Below are positions 7,572-52,314 of a DNA stretch of 64,000 nucleotides, one piece after another (the stretch's first letter is position 1; each line of letters begins with the position of its first letter). A program made the translations under genes and the position numbers. This DNA comes from an uncultured Rikenellaceae bacterium. Lineage in GTDB: Bacteria; Bacteroidota; Bacteroidia; Bacteroidales; VadinHA17. The stretch is taken from contig CAZRDX010000040.1 of the NCBI GenBank assembly GCA_964599235.1, forward strand, positions 9,666 to 73,665, in the 5' to 3' direction. The notes beneath the pieces were generated by a model. The model was not told where the DNA came from. It did no database searches and saw only the letters and a list, made by a program, of their open reading frames with translations.

Positions 7572-7736
7572 ATTTATTGTAAAGCTTATCTGGTTAAAAA
7601 AATACTTTTAAACGCACGAAAATAGTCAAATCTTACCGAAACGGGGACGGTGGACGCGCGGAATTATCAACAAAATACTGTTTAAAAGAAAAGAGGGTTT
7701 TGGGAGAGTGAAAAGTCCCGTTCGGTAAAGAATTCG

Positions 7737-7744
7737 TATCTTTG
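7737..7744 (+). promoter_or_regulatory. Candidate -7 promoter box (TATCTTTG) for clpC
   Basis: Matches TAnnTTTG about 60 nt upstream of ATG 7806. No TTTG at canonical -33 spacing. Confidence 0.3.
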
Positions 7745-7805
7745 AAGTACGGCAGTGGTTCTCCCTGTCGACAAGGGAGGATCGTAGGAACAGGAGGAAG
7801 ATATT

Positions 7806-16251: not shown

Positions 16252-16306
16252 ATCCGAACTTGCTGTACCCAAAAGTAGAAAAACCCTAAGAGTAAAACAA
16301 AAGAGC

Positions 16307-18921: not shown

Positions 18922-21102
18922 ATGGGGAAGATCTTGTTGTTTCGCACCTGGCTCATCCTGGTTTCAGGATTGGTGACACCTCTTTTGCTTCATGCTCAGG
19001 ATGAGCGTCCTGTCCTGATAGCGGGGCGAACATTGGACGGATTCGTTTTTGACGGGCGGGTGGACGATCCATGCTGGCAGCAGGTAGATTCGATCCCCAA
19101 TCTCACAATGGTGGAGCCTCGCGAAGGGGCTGTACCCACTTTTCCAACTGTGGTACGTGTATTGGCCACTGAGCGTGAGATCATTCTGGGGATCATCTGT
19201 TATGATGACGAGCCGGATAAGATCGTTTCTTTCTCCAAGGCACGCGACTCTTATCTGCGTGGTGAGGATTACATCAAGTTCGTTTTTGACACCTATCAGG
19301 ACGGAAGGACGGGATATATTTTTTCGGTCAATCCCAGCGGGGCACGTTATGATGCTTTGTCGGAGAAGCACGGGGAACGGGAGGACAGCAACTGGGACGG
19401 CATATGGGATGCGCGGACCTTCAGGGGCCCTCGTTACTGGTCGCTGGAGGTGCGTATCCCCGTGAAGACGCTCACCTTTGCAAAAGGGTTGCATGCCTGG
19501 GGGTTCAATATGGAGCGGCGCATCCAGCGACTGCAGGAGGTGGACCGGTGGAGCGGAGCACGGATGGACTATCGGGTGGCACAGGTGATCGTGGCAGGTC
19601 TCCTGGAAGGACTGCCATCTTTCAACCTGGGGGCCGGCATGACCATCAAGCCTTCGCTTGTGGGAGACATCTCCCGCGAAGCCGGCGAGAACAGGGTATA
19701 CGACTGGAAGCCCAGCCTGGACATGATCCAGCGTATCACACCCGAGATCACAGCCCAGCTTACTCTCAACACCGACTTTGCCGAGACAGAGGTGGATACG
19801 CGCCGGACCAACCTCACCCGATTCTCCCTGTTCTTCCCTGAAAAAAGACAGTTCTTTCTCGAAGGTGCTGACATCTACTCGTTTGGACTCGGTCTGTCCC
19901 CCCATTCCCTTCTCCCTTTCAACAGCCGTCGTATCGGGCTGTATCAGGGGGAGGAAGTCCCCCTGGTAGTGGGTGCCAAGGTCAACGGAAAAGTCAGGAA
20001 AACGAACTTCGGGGCACTCATGACCCACATGGGCAAGCTGGATACTACCCTCTCTCCCACCAACCTGGGGGTGGTACGTGTCAAGCAGAACATCCTGAAA
20101 GAATCGACCGTAGGGATGATCGCCACCTTCGGCGACCCCTCCGGAATGAGCGGAAGTGGTATGGCTGGTATTGATTTCACTTACCGTACCAGTCATTACC
20201 GGGGCGACAAGAACCTGCTGGCCGGGGTATGGGGACTCTACAACTGGCGTGAGGATCTGGACGATGATCGTTCGGCATTCGGACTGACCGTCGACTACCC
20301 CAATGACAAATGGGATATTTTTGCGTCTTTCCGCCGGGTAGGCACGGATTTCAATCCTTCGCTGGGTTTTGTCCCACGACGCGGGATCTATGCCTATTCC
20401 CTTTCGGTGGATTTCATGCCCAGACCGGAGAAGATCGGTTTTATCAGACAGTTCTTTTTTGAATCTTTCTATTATCTGATCACCGATCTGAACCATCACT
20501 GGGAGAGTTACACCATTTTCACCGCACCTGTTCATTTCCGCATGGAGAGCGGTGACCGTTTTGAGTTCAACGTCAAACCGGCTGGGGAGTTTCTGAAAGA
20601 ACCGTTCGAGATCTCGCCGGGGGTGGTGATCCCGGCAGGCGGATATCACTGGATACGTTCACGGCTGGAGCTGGAGACCGCGAGCAAGCGTCCGGTGAAT
20701 GGACAGATCACCTGGTGGTATGGTGGTTTTTACGAAGGTTGGCTGGACCAGATCGAGCTGCAGTTGTTTCTGCGTCCTTTCACCTGGATGATCATTGAAC
20801 TGAATTACGAGAGGAACATTGCCAGGAACCTTGTGAACAATCCTGATTATGATTTCGACCAGAGTCTTTTTGGCGGGCGTCTGCAGCTCAATTTCAGTTC
20901 CGACATGCAGCTGAGCTCTTTCATTCAGTATGACAACATGAGCAGGTCGATCGGCACCAATACCCGTTTCCGCTGGACCTTCACGCCGAAAGGAGACCTG
21001 TTCATCGTGTACAATCACAATGTAGCTCAGGACCTGGAAGATCGTTTCGGGTTCCAGTCGAACCAACTGATCGCCAAACTGACCTACAGTTTCTGGCTGT
21101 AG
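18922..21102 (+). CDS. CBM9-like / DUF5916 family outer-membrane protein
   Basis: Signal peptide ending LLLHAQ. The N-terminal region GRVDDPCWQQVDSI...GEDYIKFVFDTYQDGRTGYIFSVNPSGARYD is typical of the CBM9-like domain that precedes DUF5916. C-terminal aromatic residues (YSFWL). Confidence 0.75.
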   Translation: MGKILLFRTWLILVSGLVTPLLLHAQDERPVLIAGRTLDGFVFDGRVDDPCWQQVDSIPNLTMVEPREGAVPTFPTVVRVLATEREIILGIICYDDEPDKIVSFSKARDSYLRGEDYIKFVFDTYQDGRTGYIFSVNPSGARYDALSEKHGEREDSNWDGIWDARTFRGPRYWSLEVRIPVKTLTFAKGLHAWGFNMERRIQRLQEVDRWSGARMDYRVAQVIVAGLLEGLPSFNLGAGMTIKPSLVGDISREAGENRVYDWKPSLDMIQRITPEITAQLTLNTDFAETEVDTRRTNLTRFSLFFPEKRQFFLEGADIYSFGLGLSPHSLLPFNSRRIGLYQGEEVPLVVGAKVNGKVRKTNFGALMTHMGKLDTTLSPTNLGVVRVKQNILKESTVGMIATFGDPSGMSGSGMAGIDFTYRTSHYRGDKNLLAGVWGLYNWREDLDDDRSAFGLTVDYPNDKWDIFASFRRVGTDFNPSLGFVPRRGIYAYSLSVDFMPRPEKIGFIRQFFFESFYYLITDLNHHWESYTIFTAPVHFRMESGDRFEFNVKPAGEFLKEPFEISPGVVIPAGGYHWIRSRLELETASKRPVNGQITWWYGGFYEGWLDQIELQLFLRPFTWMIIELNYERNIARNLVNNPDYDFDQSLFGGRLQLNFSSDMQLSSFIQYDNMSRSIGTNTRFRWTFTPKGDLFIVYNHNVAQDLEDRFGFQSNQLIAKLTYSFWL

Positions 21103-21103
21103 G

Positions 21104-22198
21104 TCAACTGTTTCTATTACGGAAGAAAAGGTATCCCATTCCCGTGATCACCATCAGCAGGATGGCACCTCCGGTATAGAGCAGATATCTGAAAGGTCGG
21201 GACATTTCCTGGTTGTTCTTTTGTGAAGAAGAGGTTTCAGATGCCCCAAACACCTTGTCCAGATCCACGCTTCTGGGAGCGATGGACAAGGCTTCGGCCG
21301 AGGAGGCCATGGGTTCCTTGGACAGGATCTGACTCATCTCATTGAGCACCATGGGGTTGCCTACATCAAACCCCAGCATGTCCGCTACTTTCTGGTCCAT
21401 GTTTGCCGTCCACTGCAACGGGATGGCCCTTTTCAGCAACGGGCTCAGGTCGATGCCACATTCACAATCGGTACCCAGCATCACAAGCTGTTTCAGCAAC
21501 TTTTCACGGGTGATCCCTTTACCCACAAGCGGTGGTCCTGCCAGACGGCCCCGTCCGTAAATGACCATAACCACCGGTCGGGGAACGTAAGGGTCGACAC
21601 CTGCCGCCCGCAGGATGATCTCTTCCTTGGCACGTTCCTCCGGGGGAACCATCACTTTGAGGATCTGTTGATCAGCAGGCTTGTCAAGAGAATGCGCCAG
21701 TTTCCGGAAATGTTCAAGGGTGCTCTCCACCACCCTGTCGACGGCAGTGTCCCGCTCATCGTAGAACCCGACCAGGAAAGCAAAAACATTCCCTGTCTGT
21801 CGCCGGAAAGCGCGTTGCAGGGGAGAAAAAAGCACTTTCTCATAAAAGGACCGGATCTCTCCTGCCGAAAAGACCTCCTTTTCAGCCAGGACGATCCCCC
21901 TGTCGTTACGCAGTACAAGACGTCCCTTATCAGCATCCTTTGTGTCTCGTATCCGGTAATGTATGTTGGTTGTGGCCTCCATGTCATCAGCGATCGTCCT
22001 GAAACTCCTGACCAGATCATGGTATCTTGTCGTGTCCGCTTCCAGCTCCATGATGTAGATCTGGAGCCTCAGGGGTGTGTAGCCGATCTCCCGGATCGTG
22101 AACCTGCAACCGGAAGCCTCGGGTGTGGAAACAAGGAGGAGCATGATCCCCAATCCCCATCCGAGAACCTTTCTTCCACTCATTCTTGTTTTCTCCAT
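21104..22198 (-). CDS. Hypothetical protein with lipobox-like signal (EASGC) and a C-terminal TM helix; no family recognised
   Basis: ATG 22198 lies 3 nt after the upstream stop. Hydrophobic N-terminus GWGLGIMLLLVS then ASGC; C-terminal LLYTGGAILLMVITGMGYLFF. Confidence 0.7.
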   Translation of the reverse strand: MEKTRMSGRKVLGWGLGIMLLLVSTPEASGCRFTIREIGYTPLRLQIYIMELEADTTRYHDLVRSFRTIADDMEATTNIHYRIRDTKDADKGRLVLRNDRGIVLAEKEVFSAGEIRSFYEKVLFSPLQRAFRRQTGNVFAFLVGFYDERDTAVDRVVESTLEHFRKLAHSLDKPADQQILKVMVPPEERAKEEIILRAAGVDPYVPRPVVMVIYGRGRLAGPPLVGKGITREKLLKQLVMLGTDCECGIDLSPLLKRAIPLQWTANMDQKVADMLGFDVGNPMVLNEMSQILSKEPMASSAEALSIAPRSVDLDKVFGASETSSSQKNNQEMSRPFRYLLYTGGAILLMVITGMGYLFFRNRNS

Positions 22199-22201
22199 GG
22201 C

Positions 22202-25200
22202 TCAATGGAAAAGGGCTTCATCCGGGATCTTCCTTTTTCCCATTCCCGGCCCGTCCCAGAAAACCCGGAGGGCTTTCCCCGTGACGGTCTGGAAGTATCC
22301 CAGCCTGAAAGCATGCAAACCCTGTGAAAGAGGGATCTCACCCGACATCTCACGTGCTCCGTGGGTACCGTCGTTGTCAACCACTTTCTGCCCGTCGATC
22401 CAGAGGATACTACCATCGTCGCTTTGTATGTAGAAATGATAGATGCCGTCGGCAGGAACTCTCAGAAAGCCGTCAAAACAGAGACCGAAATGTTCCTCTT
22501 TCCGGGCCCAGGAAAGATCGAGAGTCCGTGCCACACCATCCCTTTCGGGTGCAAGGCTGTCGAAGGCCGGCACCATCGTCCAGATGCCTTCGTAACAGCG
22601 GACCTTTACGCCCGGCCGGGTGGGTACGGTAAGTGCAGGCAAAAGTCTGGGAATACCCACCTTTTTTTGGGATACCTCACTGATCCGGACATTCCCATTT
22701 TCCTTCCACACGGTCACGGCTTTCACGGTCACAGAGTCGGCGATCCTGATAGGATTCCCGTACAGGGGTGAACCGGGACCGGGCAGTGAACCGTCGAGGG
22801 TGTAATGGATCTCACCGGTATGTCCTATCCGTTCGAGAAGGATCTCCCGCTTTCCGTCGGAAATGGCGTTTTGTGGAAGGATCTGAGGAGCAGGACGCAG
22901 GCGTTCGAAATGGCGGGCACGCCGGAGTTTGACCTCTTTTCCCTGCTTGCGGGTATAGAAGGCGAGACTTATCTCCGTGCTCCTGTCGAGGAGGATGGGC
23001 CCTGTATAGGGTATGGAAAGAGAATCGGGATCACTGCCGTCCAGAGTGTAAAACAGACGGCCTTTCACCCCATTCTTCACCACCAGTTTTACCGACAGGG
23101 TGTCGATGAAACGGCTCTCTCCGCTGAAGAGGAACATGACCGGTGTACGATATTTGGGTGCCATCACCATGGAGGTCTCGTACCAGGTGCCGCAGGAGCA
23201 GCCCCCACCTCCTTCGGGTGAGAGTACCATCCCCAGCGCCGGAATGGTGCTGATCCAACAGTCGGGGCGCAGACGTTCCCATTTGGAGAATTTACGTGTA
23301 TCGAAGTTGAACTGTGTCACACTTCCACCGCGGTAGAAAACACTTTGTTCGGAGAGCGTATAGGAGGAACAACCGTGGCCGGCTTTGGGCACATCGTAGC
23401 CGATACGTTCGCCGGTATCCATCCTGAAAAGACCCGGTTTGAGCATCAGGCGGTTCCCTGCGATGGCCGGACGTGAGAGGTGACCACCGTGGTTGTCAGA
23501 TGGCCAGGGCATGCCGTTCTTCCAACGCAACGAACCGTCGCGTACATCGTAATTGTAAAGATAATAAGTACCTTTGTATGAGGCTACGATCACCAGCCTG
23601 CCATTTCCGGCCGCCATGTAATAAGCAGCGATGCCCGGTTGGGTTTTGATGCGGTGGTGCCAGAGCACTTTCCCGTCGTTCAGAGACAGGGCGGTGAGCC
23701 ACAGCTCTCTGAAGATCCCTTCACCGCCCCGTTTCTTGTCGGTCAGCTCGGGAGTAGCCGATTCCACAAAGAACACTTTTCCCTCATAGATGGTGATGGT
23801 GGAATTGATGATCATGGAGGGGGCCGGGTTGTATTCCCAGAGGATATCCGCCCCTCCCCGGGGGATCGCAAAGAGTCTGTAGCTCATCACCTTGTCCGTT
23901 TCAGGACCATGGGTTTCGTCGTACCAACCCCATTCACCGTGGTAGGAGACAAAGGCGCTGTGGCGGGGTGTGGCGGTACCGACCACGATGCCGTCAGCAG
24001 GCCCCACGTATCCCCAGTCGTAATCATCTGCAGCTGCCCGGGGCACCTGTACTTCGCGCACAACATTCCCGTTCTCCTGGTCCAATACCAAGAGCGAGGG
24101 ACCTTTGGCCGCATACAGGTACCGGTCGTCGGCGGCCCAGTTGGCACAGTCGCGCACAACATTCATCCTGATGAAGCCGGGGATCACGCGAGTCCAAAGA
24201 ATGGTCCCGTTGTATGCATCGATGGCGGCAATACGTTCCAGACCCTGGACAAACAACTTTCCGTTGATGGCCAGGGGTGAAGGTTTTCTTCCGTTCCTGT
24301 CGGCCTGAAAGCGCGGTCCGGGACGTCCCATCCATTGCACTTCGAACTCGTCGCTTGAGGTGGTCCCCCACAGGCTCTCACCCCCAAAGGCACTGTTGTC
24401 CGGCGTACCGTACTCCGCTGTCCATACCCCACCGTCGTCGGGTTCTTTTTTTCGTAGTATTACGGCATATCCCTTATCAAAAGGGACCATTTCCTCTTCC
24501 ACCTGCCACAGTTCGTTGCTGTTGTTGCTCTTTTCAAAGTAGTCTCGGGCCAGTTCTTCCTTATCCTCCCCCCTGAGAAAGAATGCCAGCCCGTGAGGAG
24601 CTGTCAAACGGATCACTTCATCCACATCGGGAGTCGGGGAAACGTTACACACAACGAGATCAGCAAGATCGGACTGAATAGGAAGGCGAGAGAGATCCTC
24701 GACGGCGTATGCTGAAAGCCTCCCTCCGTAAATACCCTCCCTAAAAAGCTTTTCGCGGAACCGTGTTACTTTGCGGCGTGAAGGGTCGAAAACCACCACA
24801 TTGTAGTAGGAACGGGCAGCCAGCATTACAGGCAACGTGCCGTCGTCGAGGCCCAGAACGAAACAAAGCCCTTTCCGGGGTTCGCTGGCCAAAGAAAGGA
24901 TCCCGGCAGCCAGCTTCACCTGCTTGCCGTTTTCCTGCCAGTGCGGAGAAGGCGATACTTTTTCCGGAGAAAAATTAAAGAAATTGTCATATTCAAACCG
25001 CTGCGACACTTTCCCTTCCCCCTCGATCCGGTAATCATAAATAAAGTTCTTTCTTACCGGTATCACAAACCTGTGGCGGGGGGAAGGTGCCTTGTCACGC
25101 AGTATCTTTTTTTCAATATCGTTGTTGGAACGCCAGTAAACAGAACACAAAAGGGGTTCTCCTGTTTGGAACTCAAGGGCGATGTGGTTCTTATCCAAGG

Positions 25201-26557
25201 TGGTAATGTAAGGCCCTGAGGTGAGGTCAAGTGAATTTTTCGGTGAATTCTTCCATCTCTTCCCTTCAGGAAAGCTGTCCCGGGGGCTGAAGGTTTGCGG
25301 TCGGCCATCCCTGGAAAAACAATAGATCCTGCCTTCGCCGGTAGAGACGAAAAGGGCGCTGTCCCCCACTGCCATAGCATAGATCGTTCCTTTCACGAGT
25401 CCTTTCCAGAGGGGGCGGCCATCGGTCACTGAAAGTGCATAGACGGTATCGGTAGCTCCGGCAAAAAGTACCGTATCTGCCATCACGATACGGTGAGCAT
25501 AGTAAGCCCTTTGTACCCACAGCACTTCCCTGGTCTTTCTGTCGTAGGCGGAGATAGCATTGTCAGAGAGCACAAAGCTTTTGTCATCTGACACCACCAT
25601 CTCCTTCCCACCTTTGAAAGACATGTATTCAGGTTTCTTTTTTTTCAGGTCAAGGTCGACGATCGATGGGTATCGTGAGGTGAGGGCATGGACGACATGC
25701 CTGTCGGGGGTTACCAGCACGAAACATCCTCCGTCGCCAGGCAACTGTCCAAGGATCTTTCCGGTGTGTTTATCGAAGAAGACCGGAGAGACCCTGCCCT
25801 GGGGCTGGATCAGACGGTCACCCGAGGAGGCCATGGCCCCTTCAAAAGTGACATCTTCCACTTCGCGTACCCAGGTACCTTCTTTGCCCGTCTTGCCGGT
25901 CCGGGCGTCCACGGCACATAGGAAGCTCTTCTTCCAGGGGATGAGCGAGGCACTGAAATAGGCGATGCCGTCCTCAATGAGCACGCCTGTACGGACGGGC
26001 CAGAAAGAGATCAGACGGCCGTTGTTGAGCACCTTCTCTTGCGTGCGTGAAGGTGAGAACTTCCAGACAATCCGGCCGTTGGAAGCGTTGAGGCAGTATA
26101 CGAAACCATCGTCGGAACCTATATAGAGCTGTCCTTTCCACCACGTGGGTGCAATACGGATGGGTCCACCTGTGATGAAATGCCACTCTTCTTTTCCGGT
26201 CCGGGTGTTGAGGCAGTGCACTGCATCATCGGAGGTGGAGGCATACCACAGATGCTCTCCCACGATGACGGGGCTGTAAGCCAGATCATAGTCGCGCATG
26301 GAGGGGAGTGGTCCGCTCAGGGCATAAGCATCTTCCCTGGCCGGTCCGTACCACGCGGGAACGGGCTCATGGGGGGCCTCATATACCCATCGCAGGCCGA
26401 AAGGCCGCCCGAAGATACTGACCGGGCTCTTCGCACTGCGGTAGTTGTCGCGTTTGAATTGCGGCCAGTCGTTCTCCTTCACCTGCTGCTCCTTGCATGC
26501 GGTCAGTAAGGAGAAAAGAGTGATCCCTACCAGGATCTTTGTAAAGATGCGTATCAT
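22202..26557 (-). CDS. 1451-aa multidomain lipoprotein: two PQQ/BamB-like beta-propellers, Fn3-like unit, methyltransferase-like insert, two CHB_HEX_C-like units, PA14
   Basis: Lipoprotein signal MIRIFTKILVGITLFSLLTAC at ATG 26557; the track start 26899 runs into the ABC ATPase gene. Repeated propeller motif such as VYCLNASNGRIVW, IAAIDAYNGTILW and LSLNDGKVLW. FYTLDGSDP and IHYTLDGSLPGPGSP units. PA14-like tail DGIYHFYIQSDDGSILWIDGQKVVDNDG. Confidence 0.85.
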   Translation of the reverse strand: MIRIFTKILVGITLFSLLTACKEQQVKENDWPQFKRDNYRSAKSPVSIFGRPFGLRWVYEAPHEPVPAWYGPAREDAYALSGPLPSMRDYDLAYSPVIVGEHLWYASTSDDAVHCLNTRTGKEEWHFITGGPIRIAPTWWKGQLYIGSDDGFVYCLNASNGRIVWKFSPSRTQEKVLNNGRLISFWPVRTGVLIEDGIAYFSASLIPWKKSFLCAVDARTGKTGKEGTWVREVEDVTFEGAMASSGDRLIQPQGRVSPVFFDKHTGKILGQLPGDGGCFVLVTPDRHVVHALTSRYPSIVDLDLKKKKPEYMSFKGGKEMVVSDDKSFVLSDNAISAYDRKTREVLWVQRAYYAHRIVMADTVLFAGATDTVYALSVTDGRPLWKGLVKGTIYAMAVGDSALFVSTGEGRIYCFSRDGRPQTFSPRDSFPEGKRWKNSPKNSLDLTSGPYITTLDKNHIALEFQTGEPLLCSVYWRSNNDIEKKILRDKAPSPRHRFVIPVRKNFIYDYRIEGEGKVSQRFEYDNFFNFSPEKVSPSPHWQENGKQVKLAAGILSLASEPRKGLCFVLGLDDGTLPVMLAARSYYNVVVFDPSRRKVTRFREKLFREGIYGGRLSAYAVEDLSRLPIQSDLADLVVCNVSPTPDVDEVIRLTAPHGLAFFLRGEDKEELARDYFEKSNNSNELWQVEEEMVPFDKGYAVILRKKEPDDGGVWTAEYGTPDNSAFGGESLWGTTSSDEFEVQWMGRPGPRFQADRNGRKPSPLAINGKLFVQGLERIAAIDAYNGTILWTRVIPGFIRMNVVRDCANWAADDRYLYAAKGPSLLVLDQENGNVVREVQVPRAAADDYDWGYVGPADGIVVGTATPRHSAFVSYHGEWGWYDETHGPETDKVMSYRLFAIPRGGADILWEYNPAPSMIINSTITIYEGKVFFVESATPELTDKKRGGEGIFRELWLTALSLNDGKVLWHHRIKTQPGIAAYYMAAGNGRLVIVASYKGTYYLYNYDVRDGSLRWKNGMPWPSDNHGGHLSRPAIAGNRLMLKPGLFRMDTGERIGYDVPKAGHGCSSYTLSEQSVFYRGGSVTQFNFDTRKFSKWERLRPDCWISTIPALGMVLSPEGGGGCSCGTWYETSMVMAPKYRTPVMFLFSGESRFIDTLSVKLVVKNGVKGRLFYTLDGSDPDSLSIPYTGPILLDRSTEISLAFYTRKQGKEVKLRRARHFERLRPAPQILPQNAISDGKREILLERIGHTGEIHYTLDGSLPGPGSPLYGNPIRIADSVTVKAVTVWKENGNVRISEVSQKKVGIPRLLPALTVPTRPGVKVRCYEGIWTMVPAFDSLAPERDGVARTLDLSWARKEEHFGLCFDGFLRVPADGIYHFYIQSDDGSILWIDGQKVVDNDGTHGAREMSGEIPLSQGLHAFRLGYFQTVTGKALRVFWDGPGMGKRKIPDEALFH

Positions 26558-26573
26558 TGCAACAAGATGTTTT

Positions 26574-27236
26574 TCATTGGACAATCCTTCCTTTTTCCAT
26601 AAGGATGGTCCGCTCGGCAACCCGGTCGGCATGGTCGTCGTGGCTGACCATGACGACGGTCCCTCCTTCCTGCTGGTAGGTATGGAGCAGACGGATGACC
26701 ACACCGGCATGGGCGGGGTCCAGGTTTCCGGTAGGTTCGTCGGCCAGGATGAGCTTCGGATGGCGCAGCAGAGCCCTGGCCAGGGCCACCCGCTGTTTCT
26801 CTCCGGCAGAAAGAGCCCCAGGAAGGTGATCCTCTCTTTCCTCAAGACCCAATCTTTGCAGCAGTATGCGGAGCTCTTCCCTCCCGTCTTTCCGTGCAAC
26901 CGCCTTGTTGGCCAGAAGAATGTTCTCCTTTACGCTGAGGTAAGGCAACAGATGATACGACTGGAACACAAAACCGATGTGTTCTCCCCGGAAGCGGGAC
27001 CGTTCCCTGTCGTTCATCTGAAAAAGATCATGACCGCTGATCCATACCTTGCCGGCGGTAGGCAGGAGGAGTCCCCCAAGCAAGAAGAGGAGAGTGGACT
27101 TACCCGACCCGCTGGGGCCCTTGATGAGCACGAACTCTCCTTCCCCTATCTCGAGTCCGACCCCGGCCAGAGCCGTCACGCTGTGTTTCCCACGCCGAAA
27201 AACCTTGGTCAATCCTTCTGTTCTGATCATCTTCAT
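26574..27236 (-). CDS. ABC transporter ATP-binding protein, MacB/LolD type
   Basis: Walker A GPSGSGKST, signature LSAGEKQRVALARAL, Walker B LILADEPTGNLD. Confidence 0.93.
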   Translation of the reverse strand: MKMIRTEGLTKVFRRGKHSVTALAGVGLEIGEGEFVLIKGPSGSGKSTLLFLLGGLLLPTAGKVWISGHDLFQMNDRERSRFRGEHIGFVFQSYHLLPYLSVKENILLANKAVARKDGREELRILLQRLGLEEREDHLPGALSAGEKQRVALARALLRHPKLILADEPTGNLDPAHAGVVIRLLHTYQQEGGTVVMVSHDDHADRVAERTILMEKGRIVQ

Positions 27237-28369
27237 TCTTCCTTCAGCAATTCACCGGGTTGTTTGTATACAGCAAGGACGACCGGGATGGCAGAGGCCA
27301 CGACAGCAAAGAAAGGTGCAAGACACATGGCCCAAATGAGCAGTTCATGAAGAGGATGAATGGCCTTTGCCGTGACGCGGAACACCTGCGGACCATGTTT
27401 CATGGCCAGCCAGGTACCGAGAAAATATCCCATCCCTGCCCCGGCCAGACCCAGCAGGACAGCGCGTGCAAAGAAGATCCCTGTGATGCGCGATCCCCGG
27501 AAACCCAAAGCACGGAGAATACCTATCTCACGGGAACGCTGCATCACATTGATCATGGCCAGCGCACCGGTCCAGATGGCAGCGATGAGCAACAACACAG
27601 GCAGCAATACAGCAAAATAGTTGTCCATCATTTTCCGCTGTTTTTCCCGGGCCACGGCGATGGTTCTGTTCATGATGACCCTGGCATCGGGCAGGTCGGT
27701 CTCCAGCTGACGACGCAGGTCGCCCAGAGGATCATCCCCCTGCGCTGAGCACATACAGTTCAGGGCCATGATCTCACTGATGAGCCCTTCCTTGTGCAGG
27801 AGGTTCTGCAGATCATTGAGGTCGAAATAGATCCTGACGTCATCTTCCGACCCCGTCTCGGCCAGCGTTCTTTCTACGACATACCGCTTTCCGAGGATCG
27901 TGAGCGTATCCCCACTGTGGACATTTGCGGCACGGGCGATCTCGTAGCCCACATACACCTTTCCGCGAGGGATCGCAAAGATCATCTTGCTTCGTTTCTT
28001 TCCTTTGGGGTTGAGCTCATCCGGCGAGATGCCGGTAAGCATCACGTCCATGCCCCTCCACCGGATACGCTGATGGAGCGTAGCGGTCAGATGGGCATAG
28101 TAGATGGCTTTTTTATCGACCAATACCTGAACATATTTTTCCGGCATGGTACGGGAAGAATACCCTCTTGTCCAGAATTCGTTCATGTTGGTCGAATCCG
28201 GGATGATCCGCAGATTGAATCCCATGTTACGGGTAAGTATGCGTGTTTCGTTCTGAGAGGCCCTGGTCATGATGACAAAAAAGACCACCCCTGTCACAGC
28301 CACGGCCATTCCCAGTGATCCCAGAAAGAAATTCCAGCGCCGGTACCAGATCTCTTTAAGAAGAATCAT
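27233..28369 (-). CDS. ABC transporter permease, FtsX/MacB-type with periplasmic domain
   Basis: N-terminal TM, a large extracytoplasmic domain, and the FtsX region REIGILRALGF plus three TM helices. ATG 28369 is preferred over the track TTG 28399. The stop overlaps the ATPase ATG (ATGA). Confidence 0.85.
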   Translation of the reverse strand: MILLKEIWYRRWNFFLGSLGMAVAVTGVVFFVIMTRASQNETRILTRNMGFNLRIIPDSTNMNEFWTRGYSSRTMPEKYVQVLVDKKAIYYAHLTATLHQRIRWRGMDVMLTGISPDELNPKGKKRSKMIFAIPRGKVYVGYEIARAANVHSGDTLTILGKRYVVERTLAETGSEDDVRIYFDLNDLQNLLHKEGLISEIMALNCMCSAQGDDPLGDLRRQLETDLPDARVIMNRTIAVAREKQRKMMDNYFAVLLPVLLLIAAIWTGALAMINVMQRSREIGILRALGFRGSRITGIFFARAVLLGLAGAGMGYFLGTWLAMKHGPQVFRVTAKAIHPLHELLIWAMCLAPFFAVVASAIPVVLAVYKQPGELLKEE

Positions 28370-28441
28370 CAGCTTCAGCTTTCCTGACAAAGGTAACAAA
28401 GAGGAGCTTTCAGAAACACAGGAAAAATTTCTTTTCCATTT

Positions 28442-30667
28442 TTAAAATTCCACCCTCATTCCGCTCCTGAAGGAGCGTCCTTCATGCGGCCATCCCGGAA
28501 CGGTCTGGTAATGATGGTCCAGCAGATTATCCACTCCGGCAAAAAGCCGGATCTTTCCGTCACGTGGTATGGTCCCTTCCAGGGTCAGATCGATGTCAAC
28601 GAAATTCCCGAGGGGCATCTTGCCATGCTCCTTCAGCCAGCTTTTGCTGAGGAAACGGTCGTTGTAATACCTTCCGGTGTAATGGGTCAGCAGGTTTATC
28701 CGGATCTCTCCAAACCTGCAGGAAGTACCGGCATTCCAGATCAAGCGGGGTGTCTCGTCGTCGTATGTCCAGGAAGAGTCTCTTGCCTCTCCTTTCATCC
28801 ACATCAGGTTGGCGAAGATATCCCATCTTCCCGGGATGATCTGCCGGCGGAGGGCAGCTTCCATGCCATAGCTCCTCCTGTCTCTGTTCTCATACAGCTC
28901 GACAAGAACCCCGCTGTCCGCTTCGGCGGTCTCTCCGGAATAGCCGATGGCATCGTTCCTGTCGATAAAGAAAAGATTGAACGTGAGCGTTCCGTTCCCG
29001 TGACAATGGCGCACAGCCCCGATCTCCAGGTTGGTCCTTTTTTCATTCCGGGGAGGTTCACCTGTTGCGGTAAGAGCTCCTTTGCGTGGGGTGACGATAC
29101 CGGTCGCGATGTTACCGTGAAGCGAAAAGGCTGCTCCCTGCATGAACGACAAACCTCCCATTGCCTGCCAGACAGGCGGTTGCCATTCGTTCCGGATAGG
29201 CTCGACATCCTGGAACTTTTTTGAAGAACCTTCAATGGAGAATGCAGACCATTCCCGAAAGAACTCATCCGTGATGCGGATCCCGAGATCCATCACCCAT
29301 TTCCCCTGAATGTGCTGGTCGACCCCCACGACAGAGAGGGTATGGACATTGGCAGGATGTTCCCAATAATACCGTTTGCCGTTGGGGGCCACCCAGTGGT
29401 TGTAAAGGGCACCGATACGCATGACGTTGTGTTTGCCCAGATTCAGGATGGAAATATGACTGATCGTGGTTTCCCGGTCTTTTTCCCGATATTGCAGGCT
29501 CATGTCCGAAGTGTCGTTCCGGTAACGATATTCCGGATCACGGAGTGCCACGTTCACCAGCATTTCACCACGCAAACGGGAAGAAACCCGATAGTTCATT
29601 TTGGCGGCAGTCAGGAGAGTATTGAGCGGCCGGTAATGTTCGGTGGCTGTCCGGAATTTCAAGGCAGCAGGCGGCACGGGACGTATCAGTCCACGTTCAC
29701 CTCCGATCCAGTATGAAAAGAAACGCATGGTCATCCCGGGCCGGATCTTCCATCGCAGATTACCGTAGAGGTGGACGATCCTTTCTCTGCCGTTCCTTCC
29801 GGGAGGTCCGTCGGTGCCGTAAAAAGTTGCGCTTCCGGTATATTTCACGGCTTTTGTTCCGTTGCCGTGCATCACACCCGCAGAAATAGTGTTCCTGCTT
29901 CCATAGAACAACTCTGCCGCGGTATATACTGTGTCGATCTCCCTGCTTTGCACATCGATCACTCCCGTGAGCGGAGACAGGCTTTTCAGGAGCGCTGCCG
30001 GTGACCGGTCGACGGTGATCTTCCCGATGTCAAGAGTATGCAGAAAGGGAGCGGTCTCACAGAACTCTTTTTGGATGATCCCGTTGAGAGAGTATCCCGG
30101 ATAGGGATAAGTTTGCCCTCTGATGGTGAAGAATTCCTTCACTTTCCTGCCCCTCGACTCGATCCATCCTCCCGGAACATACCGGAGGGCCTCAGGCAGG
30201 GTGACGGGAGCATACTTTTCCATGTCAGCGGGAAGGATCACCGTCTCCGAAGGGAGCAGTGAAAAAGGTTCAGCCTGCGGATCCTTCCGGAGGCGCATTA
30301 CCGCGAGTGCAGCATATACGTTCACAGCTTCTATGCGGGTGGTATCCCGAGGCAGGGAGATGATCAGATATTTCATCTTTCCCTTTTCTATCACCACGGG
30401 AAGCACCACCTCCCGGTAACCGACCGCACCTGCTCTCAGATGGTAACTTGCAGGAAGGATCCCTGAAAGCTGAAAATGTCCGGAGGAGTCCGTGCTGGTC
30501 CCTTCCCCTCCCGGAAGAAGGATGATATGGGCTCCTGCTAACGGTTGACCGGTGGCTCGATCCGTCACTCTTCCTTCCAGACGTTCCTGAGCGGGAAGAA
30601 CCCGGATGCAACTCCACAACAGAAGCGCTATGATCACACGAAATTCCCGCTTGAAAGAACCAATCAT
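28442..30667 (-). CDS. TonB-dependent receptor with CarboxypepD_reg-like N-terminal domain
   Basis: Signal peptide MIGSFKREFRVIIALLLW. LEGRVTDRATGQPLAGAHIILL is a carboxypeptidase-regulatory-like fold, followed by plug-like and barrel regions. Terminal Phe (MRVEF). ATG 30667 is preferred over the track TTG 30691. No SusD-like gene follows. Confidence 0.88.
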   Translation of the reverse strand: MIGSFKREFRVIIALLLWSCIRVLPAQERLEGRVTDRATGQPLAGAHIILLPGGEGTSTDSSGHFQLSGILPASYHLRAGAVGYREVVLPVVIEKGKMKYLIISLPRDTTRIEAVNVYAALAVMRLRKDPQAEPFSLLPSETVILPADMEKYAPVTLPEALRYVPGGWIESRGRKVKEFFTIRGQTYPYPGYSLNGIIQKEFCETAPFLHTLDIGKITVDRSPAALLKSLSPLTGVIDVQSREIDTVYTAAELFYGSRNTISAGVMHGNGTKAVKYTGSATFYGTDGPPGRNGRERIVHLYGNLRWKIRPGMTMRFFSYWIGGERGLIRPVPPAALKFRTATEHYRPLNTLLTAAKMNYRVSSRLRGEMLVNVALRDPEYRYRNDTSDMSLQYREKDRETTISHISILNLGKHNVMRIGALYNHWVAPNGKRYYWEHPANVHTLSVVGVDQHIQGKWVMDLGIRITDEFFREWSAFSIEGSSKKFQDVEPIRNEWQPPVWQAMGGLSFMQGAAFSLHGNIATGIVTPRKGALTATGEPPRNEKRTNLEIGAVRHCHGNGTLTFNLFFIDRNDAIGYSGETAEADSGVLVELYENRDRRSYGMEAALRRQIIPGRWDIFANLMWMKGEARDSSWTYDDETPRLIWNAGTSCRFGEIRINLLTHYTGRYYNDRFLSKSWLKEHGKMPLGNFVDIDLTLEGTIPRDGKIRLFAGVDNLLDHHYQTVPGWPHEGRSFRSGMRVEF

Positions 30668-30701
30668 CCTTTCCGTCCTTTTGCGGGGCAAAGATAATTT
30701 T

Positions 30702-31334
30702 TTAATGCCTGGTACGGGAGTGCTTCTTCGTGAGATCCACGTGACGTTTCATCACCACCCTCGTGCCCGAGCTCCTGTCGTGGATCATCAGTCCTTCCCC
30801 ATCGAAAACGCTTAACCACTCGAAAGGAATATACCGGAGGAGCGTACGGAAGAGGATCTCGACAAGGGACGGCTTTTGCATGCTTTCATTCACCACGACC
30901 GTATGCGTGATCCATTTCCCGACAGTACGTCCCCAGAAGCTTTCGAAAAGAAAGTAATACAAGAAATAGACAATGCTGAAAAATATCATGGTAGCAAAAT
31001 CGCCCATGTTTGCAAACCACTGAAAGTAAGCAGGAAACAGAGCATAGAGAACAAACAGGTCCAGCACCAGGAAAAAGAAAAAGAAGACGATCATGACCTG
31101 GTCGATCAGGCCGTTCAGGATACGAAGATGGATTCCTGCCGTGCTCAGTATCCTGTGATGTTTGAACTTTTTTTTCCGGATCTCAGGTATGACGTCGGGA
31201 TCTTTCTCAAAGTGTTCACATTTCCCCTCAAAGTCGGGTTTTTTCCCTGTGAGGGAACAAATGAGACCCACATCAAGACGCCGTTCACTATGACGGCACA
31301 ACCGGCAGTATTTCAACCTCTCCTCGAGGTTCAC
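30702..31334 (-). CDS. RDD family membrane protein with N-terminal Cys-rich (zinc-ribbon-like) segment
   Basis: CRLCRHS...C-x-H segment, then the RDD-type region RILNGLIDQVM with hydrophobic helices. The start codon is GTG (cac at 31332-31334). Confidence 0.7.
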   Translation of the reverse strand: MNLEERLKYCRLCRHSERRLDVGLICSLTGKKPDFEGKCEHFEKDPDVIPEIRKKKFKHHRILSTAGIHLRILNGLIDQVMIVFFFFFLVLDLFVLYALFPAYFQWFANMGDFATMIFFSIVYFLYYFLFESFWGRTVGKWITHTVVVNESMQKPSLVEILFRTLLRYIPFEWLSVFDGEGLMIHDRSSGTRVVMKRHVDLTKKHSRTRH

Positions 31335-31484: not shown

Positions 31485-31517
31485 TTAAAAAAAGACCCCA
31501 CCTTGCCGGTGGGATCT
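31485..31517 (-). terminator. Rho-independent terminator after the tRNA pair
   Basis: Stem 31493-31502 / 31508-31517 with 9 of 10 positions paired. On the minus strand it is followed by a T-run (complement of the A-run at 31486-31493). Confidence 0.55.
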
Positions 31518-31523
31518 TTTTCG

Positions 31524-31595
31524 AGCGGGAAACGGGGATCGAACCCGCGACCCTCAGCTTGGGAAGCTGATGCTCTACCACTGAGCTACTCCCGC
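31524..31595 (-). tRNA. tRNA-Gly (anticodon CCC)
   Basis: The reverse complement GCGGGAGTAGCTCAGTGGTAGAGCATCAGCTTCCCAAGCTGAGGGTCGCGGGTTCGATCCCCGTTTCCCGCT folds as a 72-nt cloverleaf. Anticodon loop TTCCCAA. CCA is not encoded. Confidence 0.93.
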
Positions 31596-31641
31596 ATGCG
31601 ACCGTTCGGAGGAAGATCCTCTTATAACGGTCTGTTTTCGG

Positions 31642-31714
31642 AGCCTCCCATCGGACTTGAACCGACGACCTGCTCATTACGAGTGAGCCGCTCTACCAAC
31701 TGAGCTAAGGAGGC
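31642..31714 (-). tRNA. tRNA-Thr (anticodon CGU)
   Basis: The reverse complement GCCTCCTTAGCTCAGTTGGTAGAGCGGCTCACTCGTAATGAGCAGGTCGTCGGTTCAAGTCCGATGGGAGGCT folds as a 73-nt cloverleaf. Anticodon loop CTCGTAA. Confidence 0.93.
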
Positions 31715-33047: not shown

Positions 33048-34115
33048 TCAGTAAGGTGATATCTCCAGGTTCATCTTCTTATAATCCAGCAAGCGGTTGC
33101 GTATGATCTCGAGGTATTGGCGGGTGATCTTGTTGTCTTCGAGGTCGAGGGATCTTCGCAGCCATTCTTCGGCCAGTCCCAGTTTGTCATTGATCTCGCT
33201 GACGAGGGCCATGTTAAAGGCAGCACGTGCGGCGGTGCGGTTTCCGGCGGTATAGGCGAGCCTGCGCCATATCTCGGCTGCCGCCAGCCACTTGTTCTCT
33301 TCCGCATAACGTCCCGCTTTTTTAAGAGAAGGATTACCGCCGGCATAATAGATCCTTTGAACGGGGTCCCATACAGGGAAGATAAGGTAAGCATAATGTT
33401 CTCCGGACATCCTTGCCAGGTCGAACACGGCCTTTTTCAGACTGGGCAGGCGGCTCAAGGCGCTGCGGTAAGAGTGTCCCGCACTGCTGAGCCGGATCGT
33501 GTCGTAGAGCACAGTACTGTCGAGAAGCCCTTTTTCCTCATCATATACGAACCAGACGGTACGCGTGAACAACCAGACGTTGATGGTGGTCATCCAGGCT
33601 GCTTCCCCTTCCTCATCCACAATGGCAAATTCCTGACTGCGTGTGATGGAATCACGTAACCAGAGAGAAGCCATGTCAATGCAGGTTTGTCCGCCGTTCT
33701 TCTGCAGGATCTCTTTCCATAAGACCGTTCCGAGCTGCAGGGGCAGCTGATGACCGAGACTGTCCACCATCAGCGAGTCAAAGAGGATCTTGTCGGTCCA
33801 GGGGGAGTCGGAAGCCACATCCGTAAAACCATAGATCACCTTCCAGGTCAGATCGTTGTACATCTTTACCGGAATCTTCAGATCATGGAACCTCAGGGTG
33901 TCTTTCCACAGTTCTTCTCCGGGCATCCGGTTCAGAAGCACCAAATTGCGTGGGGTATTGAAAAGGATCTTTTCCGGTGGATGGAGCACCTGGATACCGA
34001 CTTCCCTGGTGGTATAACACGAAGGAAGCAGGAACAGAAAGACGAGGCAGATCCCTGATATTACAGGAACGAAAAAGGTTGTCCGGTTCTCAGTATTTCC
34101 TTTTTTCTCGTTCAC
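33048..34115 (-). CDS. Lipoprotein with TPR-like C-terminus (paralog B)
   Basis: Lipobox FLFLLPSC. The C-terminus AARAAFNMALVSEINDKLGLAEEWL is TPR-like. The start is uncertain: GTG 34115 gives a normal signal peptide, while ATG 34208 or the track start 34292 overlap the upstream gene by more than 100 nt. Confidence 0.6.
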   Translation of the reverse strand: MNEKKGNTENRTTFFVPVISGICLVFLFLLPSCYTTREVGIQVLHPPEKILFNTPRNLVLLNRMPGEELWKDTLRFHDLKIPVKMYNDLTWKVIYGFTDVASDSPWTDKILFDSLMVDSLGHQLPLQLGTVLWKEILQKNGGQTCIDMASLWLRDSITRSQEFAIVDEEGEAAWMTTINVWLFTRTVWFVYDEEKGLLDSTVLYDTIRLSSAGHSYRSALSRLPSLKKAVFDLARMSGEHYAYLIFPVWDPVQRIYYAGGNPSLKKAGRYAEENKWLAAAEIWRRLAYTAGNRTAARAAFNMALVSEINDKLGLAEEWLRRSLDLEDNKITRQYLEIIRNRLLDYKKMNLEISPY

Positions 34116-35130
34116 GTTCGATGAGGCTTCTGTATCGTCTGATCTCTTCCGAGGGATATAGTTTCCATGCTGTGTCCAGATATTCCAATGCCTTGTCGTA
34201 ATCTCCATGACGTTCACTTGCAAGTGCGAGGTTGTACAGGAGCCTGGCCTTACGTGCACCTTTCGTTTGTTCCAGAGCTTTTTCCCATGCATTTACGGCT
34301 TTGTCCCATTGTCTGAAACGTACCATCCGGGTGGCTTCTCTCATCAATCTGCTCCTCGAGGTGTAAAACCTTCGCAGCACTGTAGTCGAAGAAGGCAACA
34401 GAAGAGCCGAAAGGTTCCACCCCAACACATAGCCCGCACGTTCCGATGCTGTCCGCAATGAGGGGAGTTTTTTCTTCACCTCATCCACGGTCGCTCCATC
34501 CACCTTGTAACTCACCGAATCACGGAACAACCCTTCAAATATAAAGCGTTTTGTTCTACAGTCATAGATTTTCCACCATGCCTTACTGAAAATCTTCATT
34601 TCGGCTTGTTGCATGATCTGAGGTTCCACCCGGTAAAGGATGGTCTTGGACCAGATCTTGTTGCGGGCCTCACGGGGCCAGCGTTTGTAGGTTGAGAATA
34701 CCAGGCTGTCCTCCAGATCCAGATGGTCCAGATACAGTACCAGGTCGACGGTATCCGGGCTTTCGCATATCGTCTCCAACTCCAGGGGCTCTGCCCTCCT
34801 ATCCTGTCCTTCAAGAGTATCGACCCATTCCAGGATCCCGCTGATCTCGATGTCTCCTTCTTCAAACATCCTTTCAGAGAACCCTATCAGTGCCCGTTCA
34901 CCGGCAGCCTGGATACAGAGCCGGTCATGCACGCTCACACAAACAAAAGAAGCATCCGTATTCACTCTTTCCGGAACCGAGAGCACCAGGAGCATGTGAT
35001 GTGCCTCTGCCGGGAGCATCACCTTGGGAGGGAACGTGATTTCCACCGCGATCTCCTTCTGTACCATACAGCCAGTGTGGAAGATCACCAGAAGGAAAAA
35101 GACCCCTGCCTTCATTTTTCCGCCCGCCAT
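34090..35130 (-). CDS. Lipoprotein with TPR-like C-terminus (paralog A)
   Basis: Signal and lipobox MKAGVFFLLVIFHTGC. The C-terminus ARLLYNLALASERHGDYDKALEYL is TPR-like. It shares LPSL(R/K) and other blocks with the downstream paralog. Confidence 0.7.
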   Translation of the reverse strand: MAGGKMKAGVFFLLVIFHTGCMVQKEIAVEITFPPKVMLPAEAHHMLLVLSVPERVNTDASFVCVSVHDRLCIQAAGERALIGFSERMFEEGDIEISGILEWVDTLEGQDRRAEPLELETICESPDTVDLVLYLDHLDLEDSLVFSTYKRWPREARNKIWSKTILYRVEPQIMQQAEMKIFSKAWWKIYDCRTKRFIFEGLFRDSVSYKVDGATVDEVKKKLPSLRTASERAGYVLGWNLSALLLPSSTTVLRRFYTSRSRLMREATRMVRFRQWDKAVNAWEKALEQTKGARKARLLYNLALASERHGDYDKALEYLDTAWKLYPSEEIRRYRSLIEREREKRKY

Positions 35131-51945: not shown

Positions 51946-52314
51946 GGAGCAGACCGTCCTGTCGCCGTCCTTCGGGACGGAGGAAAGTCCGGACAACAGA
52001 GAGCACCGCACTTCCTAACGGGAAGATGTCCGTGAGGGCATAGTACCGGAACAGAAAATGACCGCCCCGCGATGCGGGGTAAGGGTGAAAAGGTGAGGTA
52101 AGAGCTCACCGGTGTCCGGGGTGACCCGGGCAGCCGTCCGGCTTGCGGGTTGAAAGACCATGTATACCGGCGTTTGAGGGTTGCTCGCCCGATGCCGGGG
52201 GGTAGGTCGCTTGAGGCACATGGTGACATGTGTCCCAGATAAATGACAGGAAGCCTTGCAAACTCTCGGGAAGAAACATGCAAGGCTACAGAATCCGGCT
52301 TACAGGTCTGCTCC
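51946..52314 (+). ncRNA. rnpB: RNase P RNA, bacterial type A
   Basis: Universal motifs GGAGGAAAGTCCGGAC and ACAGAATCCGGCTTA. P1 pairing GGAGCAGACC (51946-51955) with GGTCTGCTCC (52305-52314). GGTAAGGGTGAAA and GGTAAGAGC elements are present. Confidence 0.92.

Follow-up and report, generated by a model that had tools for sequence, protein, structure and literature searches.

The window analyzed here, a 64,000-nucleotide stretch from an uncultured Rikenellaceae bacterium (assembly GCA_964599235.1, contig CAZRDX010000040.1, positions 9,666 to 73,665), holds one ordinary copy of a conserved four-gene envelope module that is accompanied by lineage-specific accessory sets of genes. The recurrent core consists of the genes for an FtsX/MacB-type permease (27233-28369), an ATP-binding cassette (ABC) ATPase (26574-27236), a very large double-propeller protein (22202-26557; referred to as the giant) and a 364-amino-acid protein (21104-22198; P364), all located on the minus strand. 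Full-text literature searches combining the names of the components gave no description of this composition; a Geobacter paper that came up was unrelated. It therefore apparently represents a new, previously undescribed type VII ABC system with novel partners, as a preliminary description of this DNA had already suspected. Two features were not part of that description: the invariant cysteine motifs of P364 and the giant, and, in other phyla, the link between the module and ModABC-like and MoaD/MoeB-like genes. Since type VII ABC systems act on periplasmic partners (PMC5985334), P364 is a tethered protein with three invariant cysteines, the giant is an exported protein with four, and the accessory genes belong to uptake and sulfur-carrier systems, we propose by analogy, with a probability of roughly one in three (about 0.35), that the ABC motor and P364 load or mature a thiol-bound metal/sulfur site on the periplasmic propeller protein.

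The conservation of the module was studied in loci fetched through P364 (29 from species-representative genomes and 80 from metagenomes) and in further loci fetched through individual homologues, some of which were reached independently via the giant. Homologues of the window proteins were located in the fetched loci by tblastn, and synteny was compared in 103 related loci. For counting, a well-flanked set was formed from the 26 unique loci that had 5 kb or more of sequence on each side. The giant was found in 22 of these 26 loci, the FtsX permease in 21, the ATPase in 18 and the TonB-dependent receptor, whose gene precedes the permease gene in the window, in only 7; ModB-like and ThiF-like proteins were encoded in 13 loci each. 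At least four gene orders exist: FtsX-ABC-giant-P364, as in the window; receptor-P364-FtsX-ABC-giant; giant-P364-FtsX-ABC; and P364-giant-FtsX-ABC. Hosts of the module belong to the Bacteroidales, Marinilabiliaceae, Rikenellaceae, Flavobacteriaceae and Saprospiraceae and include several Planctomycetota, while a locus from the Calditrichaceae contains the giant-P364 pair without the ABC genes. The module is conserved across at least three bacterial phyla. Loci fetched through the giant also contained members of the P364 family, in the arrangement giant-P364-giant (L036), together with FtsX, ABC and giant (L040), or in a cluster of receptor, AraC-type regulator, FtsX, ABC, giant and P364 (L039). 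Homologues of five of the six clustered window genes thus recur together in many genomes, so that their clustering is not due to chance, and the co-occurrence search confirmed that the cluster is conserved.

The sixth gene, which encodes an RDD-family membrane protein with a Cys-rich N-terminal segment (30702-31334, minus strand; PF06271), precedes the receptor gene with a gap of 34 nt and had been regarded as the first gene of a six-gene unit. We found no homologue in any of 120 related loci: tblastn remained blank at E<1 in 35 loci, and none of the 26 well-flanked loci was positive. The receptor gene of locus L009 is preceded by genes that bear no relation to RDD. Because it is never found with the other genes, we rejected the RDD protein as a part of the system and consider it a local neighbor, although in the window its gene may be cotranscribed with the receptor gene.

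The status of the TonB-dependent receptor (28442-30667, minus strand; 741 aa) is different. It carries an N-terminal CarboxypepD_reg-like domain (Pfam CarbopepD_reg_2) followed by a Plug domain, and its matches to the siderophore, hemin and B12 receptor models of NCBIfam are weak. A PDB sequence search was uninformative. Against the SusC/RagA model TIGR04056 it scored 29 bits at a cut-off of 368, with the match confined to the N-terminal domain. Furthermore, SusD (PF07980) was not matched in the six clustered genes and the 10 flanking genes scanned (14962-37624), so the locus is indeed not a polysaccharide utilization locus (PUL). Orthologues of the receptor with 34-51% identity adjoin the module in Bacteroidales and Marinilabiliales, in two gene orders. 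The receptor is therefore a lineage-specific fifth member, restricted to anaerobic Bacteroidales and Marinilabiliales, and its presence in 7 of the 26 well-flanked loci, together with the missing RDD homologues, speaks against a six-gene unit.

In two close Bacteroidales relatives, the unit is degenerate. Locus L016 has kept FtsX, ABC and P364, but the giant is cut down to an 85-aa N-terminal remnant between ATPase and P364 (7162-7419). In L010, only fragments of receptor and giant are left (8238-8827) beside an intact P364. These cases indicate that the module is accessory. Other loci show structural variations of the giant and P364. In a Saprospiraceae locus (L020, 4186-9979), the giant is split by an opposite-strand gene (411 aa, 7275-8510) and only a ThiF fragment lies upstream; in Arenibacter hampyeongensis (L028, 5505-9956), it appears as two open reading frames (ORFs) of 595 and 715 aa, which may reflect a frameshift or a sequencing error. 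Two giant paralogues, a long and a short form, are present in some loci (L001, 2356-12175; L063, 2888-16858), and in L001 a single FtsX/ABC pair is also followed by two P364 paralogues in tandem. An extra conserved gene for a secreted protein of about 346 aa is located between giant and P364 in two Bacteroidales loci (L011, 7760-8803; L010, 8891-9931).

The permease (378 aa) contains the FtsX domain PF02687 (E = 1.9e-11, residues 258-370) and shows a layout of one N-terminal transmembrane helix, a predicted periplasmic domain of about 210 aa and three C-terminal transmembrane helices. The MacB_PCD domain (PF12704) was not reported in the window protein at E<=0.01, but is present in the orthologues from L001 (58% identity) and L039. 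Permease identities range from 46 to 76% in Bacteroidota and from 33 to 36% in Planctomycetota. The best PDB sequence matches were MacB and LolF (E about 1e-4), and the NCBIfam matches to lolCE, LolE and MacB were weak (lolCE 31 bits vs. a cut-off of 362, MacB 25 vs. 966). The ATPase (220 aa; PF00005, 5e-33), whose gene overlaps the permease gene by 4 nt, has intact Walker A (GPSGSGKST), signature (LSAGE) and Walker B (LILADEPT) motifs. Its best NCBIfam matches were LolD (202 bits, cut-off 308), FtsE (191 bits) and MacB (182 bits, cut-off 966), with DevA also among them. All equivalog scores are far below their cut-offs; therefore, permease and ATPase are of the type VII (MacB/Lol/FtsEX) kind, as had been proposed, but are orthologues of none of the known systems.

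P364 belongs to no Pfam or NCBIfam family, in agreement with the earlier failure to recognize a motif in it, and none of its relatives is annotated beyond 'hypothetical protein'. The family is nevertheless large: besides 45 close clusters, a profile search collected 922 representative clusters (50% identity) at E<=1e-3, 760 of them at E<=1e-10. The protein starts with a signal peptide, which is followed by two thioredoxin-like domains in tandem and a conserved helical subdomain. A disordered linker then leads to a C-terminal transmembrane anchor with a basic tail, an arrangement that places the bulk of P364 in the periplasm. The thioredoxin-like fold was recognized in an AlphaFold2 model (pLDDT 85, pTM 0.72) by Foldseek matches to protein disulfide isomerase (PDI), ERp57, ERp44 and calsequestrin, with probabilities of 0.9-1.0 and low TM-scores (about 0.2-0.3), whereas a search of the P364 profile against PDB sequences gave no match below E=0.1. 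In 41 aligned members with 20-47% identity to the window protein, the invariant residues are C31, R36, N78, G215, G242, C245, E246, C247, D278, P282 and I291. Two of the three cysteines form the motif G-T-D-C245-E-C247-G (21455-21475, minus strand), and the third is encoded at 22106-22108 (minus strand). A CxxC motif is absent from the window protein and the aligned homologues. The C-terminal transmembrane helix of the preliminary description is real. The lipobox is doubtful: in 29 homologues, the residues before C31 fit a signal-peptidase-I site better and form no consistent lipobox, which was therefore rejected as a general feature. C31 instead coincides with the predicted cleavage site or is no more than three residues away from it; in Planctomycetota, it follows the likely site by 2-3 residues. 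Correlations of pairwise identities, a crude measure that is confounded by shared phylogeny, gave rho values of 0.63 for P364 vs. FtsX and 0.67 vs. ATPase, but 0.29 vs. the giant, compared to 0.80 for FtsX vs. ATPase. At the sequence level, this suggests that P364 follows the motor in its divergence much better than it follows the giant.

The giant (1451 aa) starts with a lipoprotein signal (residues 1-21) and has a good lipobox (LLTAC), as described before. Propeller 1, which is PQQ/BamB-like (PQQ, pyrroloquinoline quinone), covers residues ~25-420 and is followed by a linker, a class-I methyltransferase-like Rossmann domain (~541-700), in which the S-adenosylmethionine (SAM) motif is degenerate in the window protein, and an eight-bladed propeller 2 (~700-1140). 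Two Fn3_assoc/CHB_HEX_C units and a PA14 domain (1337-1451) form the C-terminal tail. These Pfam assignments (PQQ_2, Fn3_assoc/CHB_HEX_C, PA14), like those of the neighboring proteins, bear out the domains that had been named before. The tail is the only part to which the earlier label 'glycan-binding' can be applied. Many family members lack this tail, among them short forms of about 1070-1200 aa. Glycan-related neighbors occur in several loci, namely GH92, SusC/SusD, an AraC-type regulator with a LamG domain and an NPCBM-domain protein. Residues 541-1140 were modeled by AlphaFold2 with high confidence (pLDDT 90.6, pTM 0.91). The closest structures found by Foldseek were tetrathionate hydrolase, BamB and PQQ/lanthanide alcohol dehydrogenases and, for the inserted domain, a SAM methyltransferase; the values for propeller 2 were E = 3e-16 to 1e-13 with TM-scores of 0.58-0.69 relative to the target and 12-15% identity. 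In fold, the giant is thus closest to tetrathionate hydrolase, a cofactor-less enzyme. Matches to surface propeller lipoproteins of the BtuG type were more distant (E about 1e-8, TM-scores 0.25-0.3). The family comprises at least 175 clusters, whose members are named only 'BamB family' or 'PQQ-binding-like repeat protein'. The first of these labels is due to repeat similarity only: the window protein scores 66 bits against TIGR03300 (cut-off 285), has two propellers and is 1451 aa long. Scores against the quinoprotein models are also below the cut-offs (TIGR03075, 32 bits vs. 480; TIGR03074, 25 vs. 833).

Propeller 2 contains, in its last blade, an invariant block of cysteines (23192-23377, minus strand) that reads GH-G-C1063, RPD-C1100-W and PEGGGG-C1120-S-C1122-G. 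In 19 homologues from three phyla, these four cysteines are invariant together with R749, R754, R757, R1076, R1097 and E1115; in 50 homologues, the cysteines are likewise invariant or nearly so. The patterns RPxCW and CxC both match in 98 of 120 homologues among the matches listed, and some of the others are fragments. The GGGGCSC loop is the sole stretch of at least three residues with a pLDDT below 50 in the AlphaFold2 model. Such low confidence within an otherwise confident model is expected for a mobile or ligand-dependent loop. The mode of export differs between phyla, since the lipobox is found in Bacteroidota and an ordinary signal peptide without lipobox in Planctomycetota. An acidic surface-export signal just after the lipobox cysteine was not evident in the sequences inspected. 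An apparently intact SAM-binding motif (LVLGCGNG ... VGVDTD) is kept in the inserted domain of some exported homologues (P0110, P0085, P0099; L036, 9001-12486), which one would not expect of a protein in the periplasm. Planctomycete homologues, which have signal peptides, likewise retain an intact motif of the GxGxG type.

In Flavobacteriaceae (Flagellimonas, Snuella, Flaviramulus, Arenibacter) and Planctomycetota, five further genes abut the module. They encode a substrate-binding protein of the ModA family, a ModB-like permease, a short WtpC/ModC-like ATPase, a MoaD-family (ThiS-like) protein and a MoeB/ThiF-type E1 enzyme. The substrate-binding protein, about 500 aa long, is unusual in its tandem ModA structure and scores above the modA cut-off (121 vs. 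62.5 bits), and the permease is slightly below the cut-off of TIGR01581 with 201 bits. The ThiS-like protein exceeds the moaD_arch cut-off and ends in GG, while the ThiF-like protein has Zn-binding CxxC pairs. In L035, nine co-directional genes overlap or nearly abut each other in the order giant, P364, FtsX, ABC, substrate-binding protein, ModB, ModC, ThiS and ThiF. The module and the Mod/ThiSF set diverge from a common intergenic region in L030 and L033, and other orders are found in L093 and L118. MoaE or other genes of molybdenum cofactor (Moco) synthesis do not accompany the set in these loci. Receptor and Mod/ThiSF set are mutually exclusive (6 vs. 9 loci, none with both), which fits alternative routes of supply. 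Two loci (L090 and L102, 3900-12300) contain tandem ModA, ModB, ModC, ThiS, a 316-aa ORF, ThiF, a 268-aa ORF, P364 and FtsX; giant and MacB-type ATPase were not detected nearby.

According to the model that we propose, the type VII motor would convert ATP hydrolysis into conformational work in the periplasm, probably without pumping a solute across the membrane, and P364 would be its membrane-tethered partner. The Cys31/Cys245-x-Cys247 site of P364 could hold a thiol-bound species (a metal, a thiometallate or persulfide sulfur) and pass it to, or mature, the four-cysteine site with its flexible GGGGCSC loop on the Sec-exported giant. The inorganic ingredient might be supplied by the receptor or by the ModABC and MoaD/MoeB set. 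Carried further, the module could be a new cofactor-assembly line, in which a type VII mechanotransducer and a three-cysteine carrier install a thiometallate-like or metal-sulfur center on the four-cysteine loop of the giant, with aerobic marine lineages making the ingredient themselves (oxyanion import of the ModABC type and sulfuration by MoaD/MoeB) and sediment anaerobes scavenging it in finished form via the TonB receptor; this extended version we consider unlikely. If true, extracytoplasmic metalloenzymes would gain a new class, and the MacB family of machines a fifth functional type.

A number of observations weigh against the maturation model. Giant and P364 occur without a nearby ABC pair in L004, L006, L013, L014, L017 and L018, and two members of the giant family (L037, L038) have neither P364 nor the ABC pair nearby. 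The identity correlations are subject to phylogenetic confounding. The role of the four cysteines of the giant could be purely structural, as two disulfides, and P364 could act as a dedicated thiol-disulfide isomerase or be no more than an adaptor. We know of no type VII ABC system that moves cytoplasmic products outward, so that sulfur derived from cytoplasmic MoaD would have no obvious route to the periplasm. The 64-kb window contains no homologues of ModABC, ThiS or ThiF, and the link to metal/sulfur chemistry is therefore imported from other lineages. Finally, a Moco riboswitch or other riboswitch/Rfam element was not found ahead of the module, neither in the window nor in four loci that were also scanned; the Rfam scan returned only tRNAs and RNase P RNA.

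A rival explanation is an FtsEX-like regulation without any cofactor, in which the motor, via P364 as adaptor or thiol switch, would toggle an enzymatic or binding activity of the giant, perhaps towards an anionic glycan or a sulfur oxyanion. We regard this as rather unlikely. It would parallel FtsEX-EnvC-amidase and YbbAP-TesA, the latter a recently described type VII motor in complex with a periplasmic enzyme (PMC12646458; for type VII systems acting on periplasmic partners, see PMC5985334), and it would be in keeping with the type VII nature of permease and ATPase, the co-divergence of P364 with the motor, the fold relationship of the giant to the cofactor-less tetrathionate hydrolase, its many invariant arginines, and the carbohydrate-type accessory domains and glycan-related neighbors in several loci. 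It leaves unexplained, however, why the three cysteines of P364 and the four of the giant are invariant and why tightly packed ModABC-like and MoaD/MoeB-like genes are recurrently associated with the module. Capture of a nutrient is a less probable explanation still, and in our view quite unlikely: the giant would act as a high-affinity binder, in the manner of BtuG with BtuB, that catches a scarce ligand (a metal complex, a thiometallate or a corrinoid-like compound) for the receptor, while P364 and the ABC pair handle this ligand in the periplasm. An orthologous small TonB receptor with weak siderophore/hemin/B12-like matches is kept beside the module through two gene orders, the ModABC system of other lineages is also an uptake system, and BtuG-type propellers are among the structural matches; their TM-scores, though, reflect a generic propeller similarity. 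Moreover, the receptor is confined to 7 of the 26 well-flanked loci, no importer is known among FtsX-type ABC systems, and neither the missing acidic surface-export signal nor the soluble periplasmic giant of Planctomycetota fits a surface binder.

The three-cysteine site of P364 is typical of soft-metal or metalloid binding. It could therefore also serve in the detoxification or efflux of a thiol-reactive oxyanion or metalloid (thiometallate, arsenite or a selenium species), which P364 would bind in the periplasm, the ABC motor expel or release, and the giant, with its retained methyltransferase-like domain, transform. This is very unlikely in our opinion. The ModA-family importer might be taken as a further hint, yet an importer beside an exporter of the same species would be odd. 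The intact GxGxG SAM-type motif of planctomycete giants, all of which have signal peptides, is opposed by its degeneration in the window giant, and to our knowledge there is no periplasmic source of SAM. MacB-family pumps do include resistance systems (PMC5985334), but an adaptor or outer-membrane duct was not matched among the window genes scanned. The preliminary description had favored a dedicated Lol-like extractor, which would pull the giant lipoprotein, perhaps also P364, from the inner toward the outer membrane. The canonical lipobox of the giant in Bacteroidota, the presence of LolD and LolC/E among the best NCBIfam matches of ATPase and permease, and the single permease gene, reminiscent of LolF-type homodimers, are consistent with such a role. 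Our results have weakened this idea to the point that we consider it the least probable of all. The equivalog scores fall far short (202 vs. 308 and 31 vs. 362 bits), and Planctomycetota keep the module with a giant that carries a plain signal peptide and is not a lipoprotein, which argues against a Lol-like role. L016 retains FtsX, ABC and P364 despite the 85-aa remnant of the giant, P364 tracks the motor and is anchored by a C-terminal helix rather than a lipid, and the cysteine motifs and the Mod/ThiSF link would be left unexplained.

The unit in the window is bounded on both sides. At its 3' end, a 12-bp hairpin (21080-21106; strand not assigned) extends over the convergent stop codons of P364 and a DUF5916-like gene and is probably a bidirectional terminator that marks the end of the unit. 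Upstream, genes for tRNA-Gly(CCC) (31523-31595) and tRNA-Thr(CGT) (31640-31714) are located on the minus strand between the genes for an M48 peptidase and the RDD protein. A GC-rich, terminator-like hairpin (~31490-31513) and a T-run come next, ahead of RDD, and would insulate the stretch from RDD to P364 from upstream transcription. Within the run of six co-directional minus-strand genes, the distances from RDD to P364 are 34, 72, -4, 16 and 3 nt according to the ORF coordinates, exactly as given before, and no convincing internal terminator was found. A sigma-70 promoter scan, a type of model that is not appropriate for Bacteroidota, showed no enrichment over shuffled sequences. The flanking genes are unrelated to the module, both upstream (M48 peptidase, two DUF6340 genes, a short-chain dehydrogenase/reductase, Sir2, succinyl-CoA ligase) and downstream (the convergent DUF5916-like gene). 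The two adjoining DUF6340 paralogues (33048-35130, minus strand), one with TPR repeats, overlap by about 200 nt as ORFs; the true start of the downstream gene (33048-34292) is therefore probably later than the listed one. A LamB-type maltoporin family protein (PF02264, E = 1e-87) is encoded at 14962-16389 (minus strand) beside glycosyltransferase and polysaccharide-synthesis genes, and a bacterial class A RNase P RNA (262 bits) lies at 51946-52318 on the plus strand.

The interest lies in the module itself, of which the window copy is an ordinary member. Only a small number of type VII ABC systems is known, and each one characterized has revealed a distinct envelope process, namely efflux, lipoprotein sorting, control of cell-wall hydrolases and lipid hydrolysis. 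The present module adds two unannotated partner families, the three-cysteine protein with about 900 clusters and the double-propeller protein with more than 175, and corrects the misleading 'BamB family' annotations of the latter. It extends across Bacteroidota, Calditrichota and Planctomycetota and has a genetic link to the import of oxyanions and to sulfur-carrier chemistry. If the maturation model is true, marine and sediment bacteria would have an undescribed extracytoplasmic metal/sulfur enzyme, and its assembly would add a further case in which ATP drives the insertion of a cofactor outside the cytoplasm. Should the model fail, cultured isolates (Puteibacter, Arenibacter, Snuella) still offer a defined and testable set of genes.

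Compared to known systems, the module shares single traits with several. In PULs and BtuB-BtuG loci, the same kind of CarboxypepD_reg receptor stands beside a large lipoprotein with carbohydrate-type accessory domains, and the distant locus L006 even has SusC-SusD beside a short giant and P364. But such loci have no place for an FtsX/ABC pair or P364, and the window has neither SusD nor a SusC/RagA-type receptor. PQQ-catabolism-associated (Ped-type) propeller/ABC families were considered as a candidate, but no such NCBIfam model was matched. Propeller 2 has the PQQ_2 repeat signature and the eight-bladed fold in common with tetrathionate hydrolase, BamB and PQQ/lanthanide dehydrogenases, all of which lack the GHGC...RPDCW...GGGGCSC block, the methyltransferase-like insert and the second propeller. 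PDI-type proteins (PDI b-b', ERp57, ERp44, calsequestrin) contain two consecutive thioredoxin-like domains, as does P364, which differs by the absence of CxxC and of sequence similarity and by the position of its cysteines at the mature N-terminus and, as CEC, after the second domain. ModABC/WtpABC importers and MoaD/MoeB pairs, in turn, are joined with the module into one cluster in Flavobacteriaceae and Planctomycetota.

Periplasmic assembly of the Cu-S center of NosZ, a Sec/Tat-exported propeller enzyme, involves the NosA/OprC receptor and needs a source of sulfur. NosL and NosDFY deliver Cu to NosZ (PMC8457098), and the logic of an ABC ATPase with its permease, a tethered periplasmic carrier, an exported β-propeller client and an optional TonB-type receptor is shared with the module. 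There is no sequence relationship, however: the Nos permease is of the ABC-2 type, NosD is a β-helix protein, and NosZ uses seven His where cysteines are found here. Nos families (NosD/F/Y/L/Z) were not among the Pfam and NCBIfam matches of the module proteins, and the likeness is one of analogy only. CcmABC, which serves cytochrome c maturation, resembles the proposed model in outline.

The closest relatives are the type VII systems MacAB-TolC, LolCDE/LolDF, FtsEX-EnvC and YbbAP-TesA, with which the permease shares the FtsX C-terminal domain, one N-terminal transmembrane helix and, as predicted, a large periplasmic domain. The ATPase of the module falls into the LolD/FtsE/MacB clade, and its gene overlaps that of the permease. 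A MacA-type adaptor, TolC, LolA or an EnvC-like coiled-coil partner was not found. As stated in the preliminary description, the module is not MacAB-TolC-like, since HlyD-type adaptor and TolC families, and hence the outer-membrane duct, had no match in the genes scanned (14962-37624). From LolCDE/LolDF it is set apart by the equivalog scores and by the giant, which is a lipoprotein in Bacteroidota but not in Planctomycetota. Periplasmic proteins encoded by adjacent genes are the likely clients, which is a parallel to FtsEX and YbbAP (PMC5985334; PMC12646458), and in the module these partners are new: a tandem-thioredoxin-fold protein with three conserved cysteines and a double-propeller protein with four.

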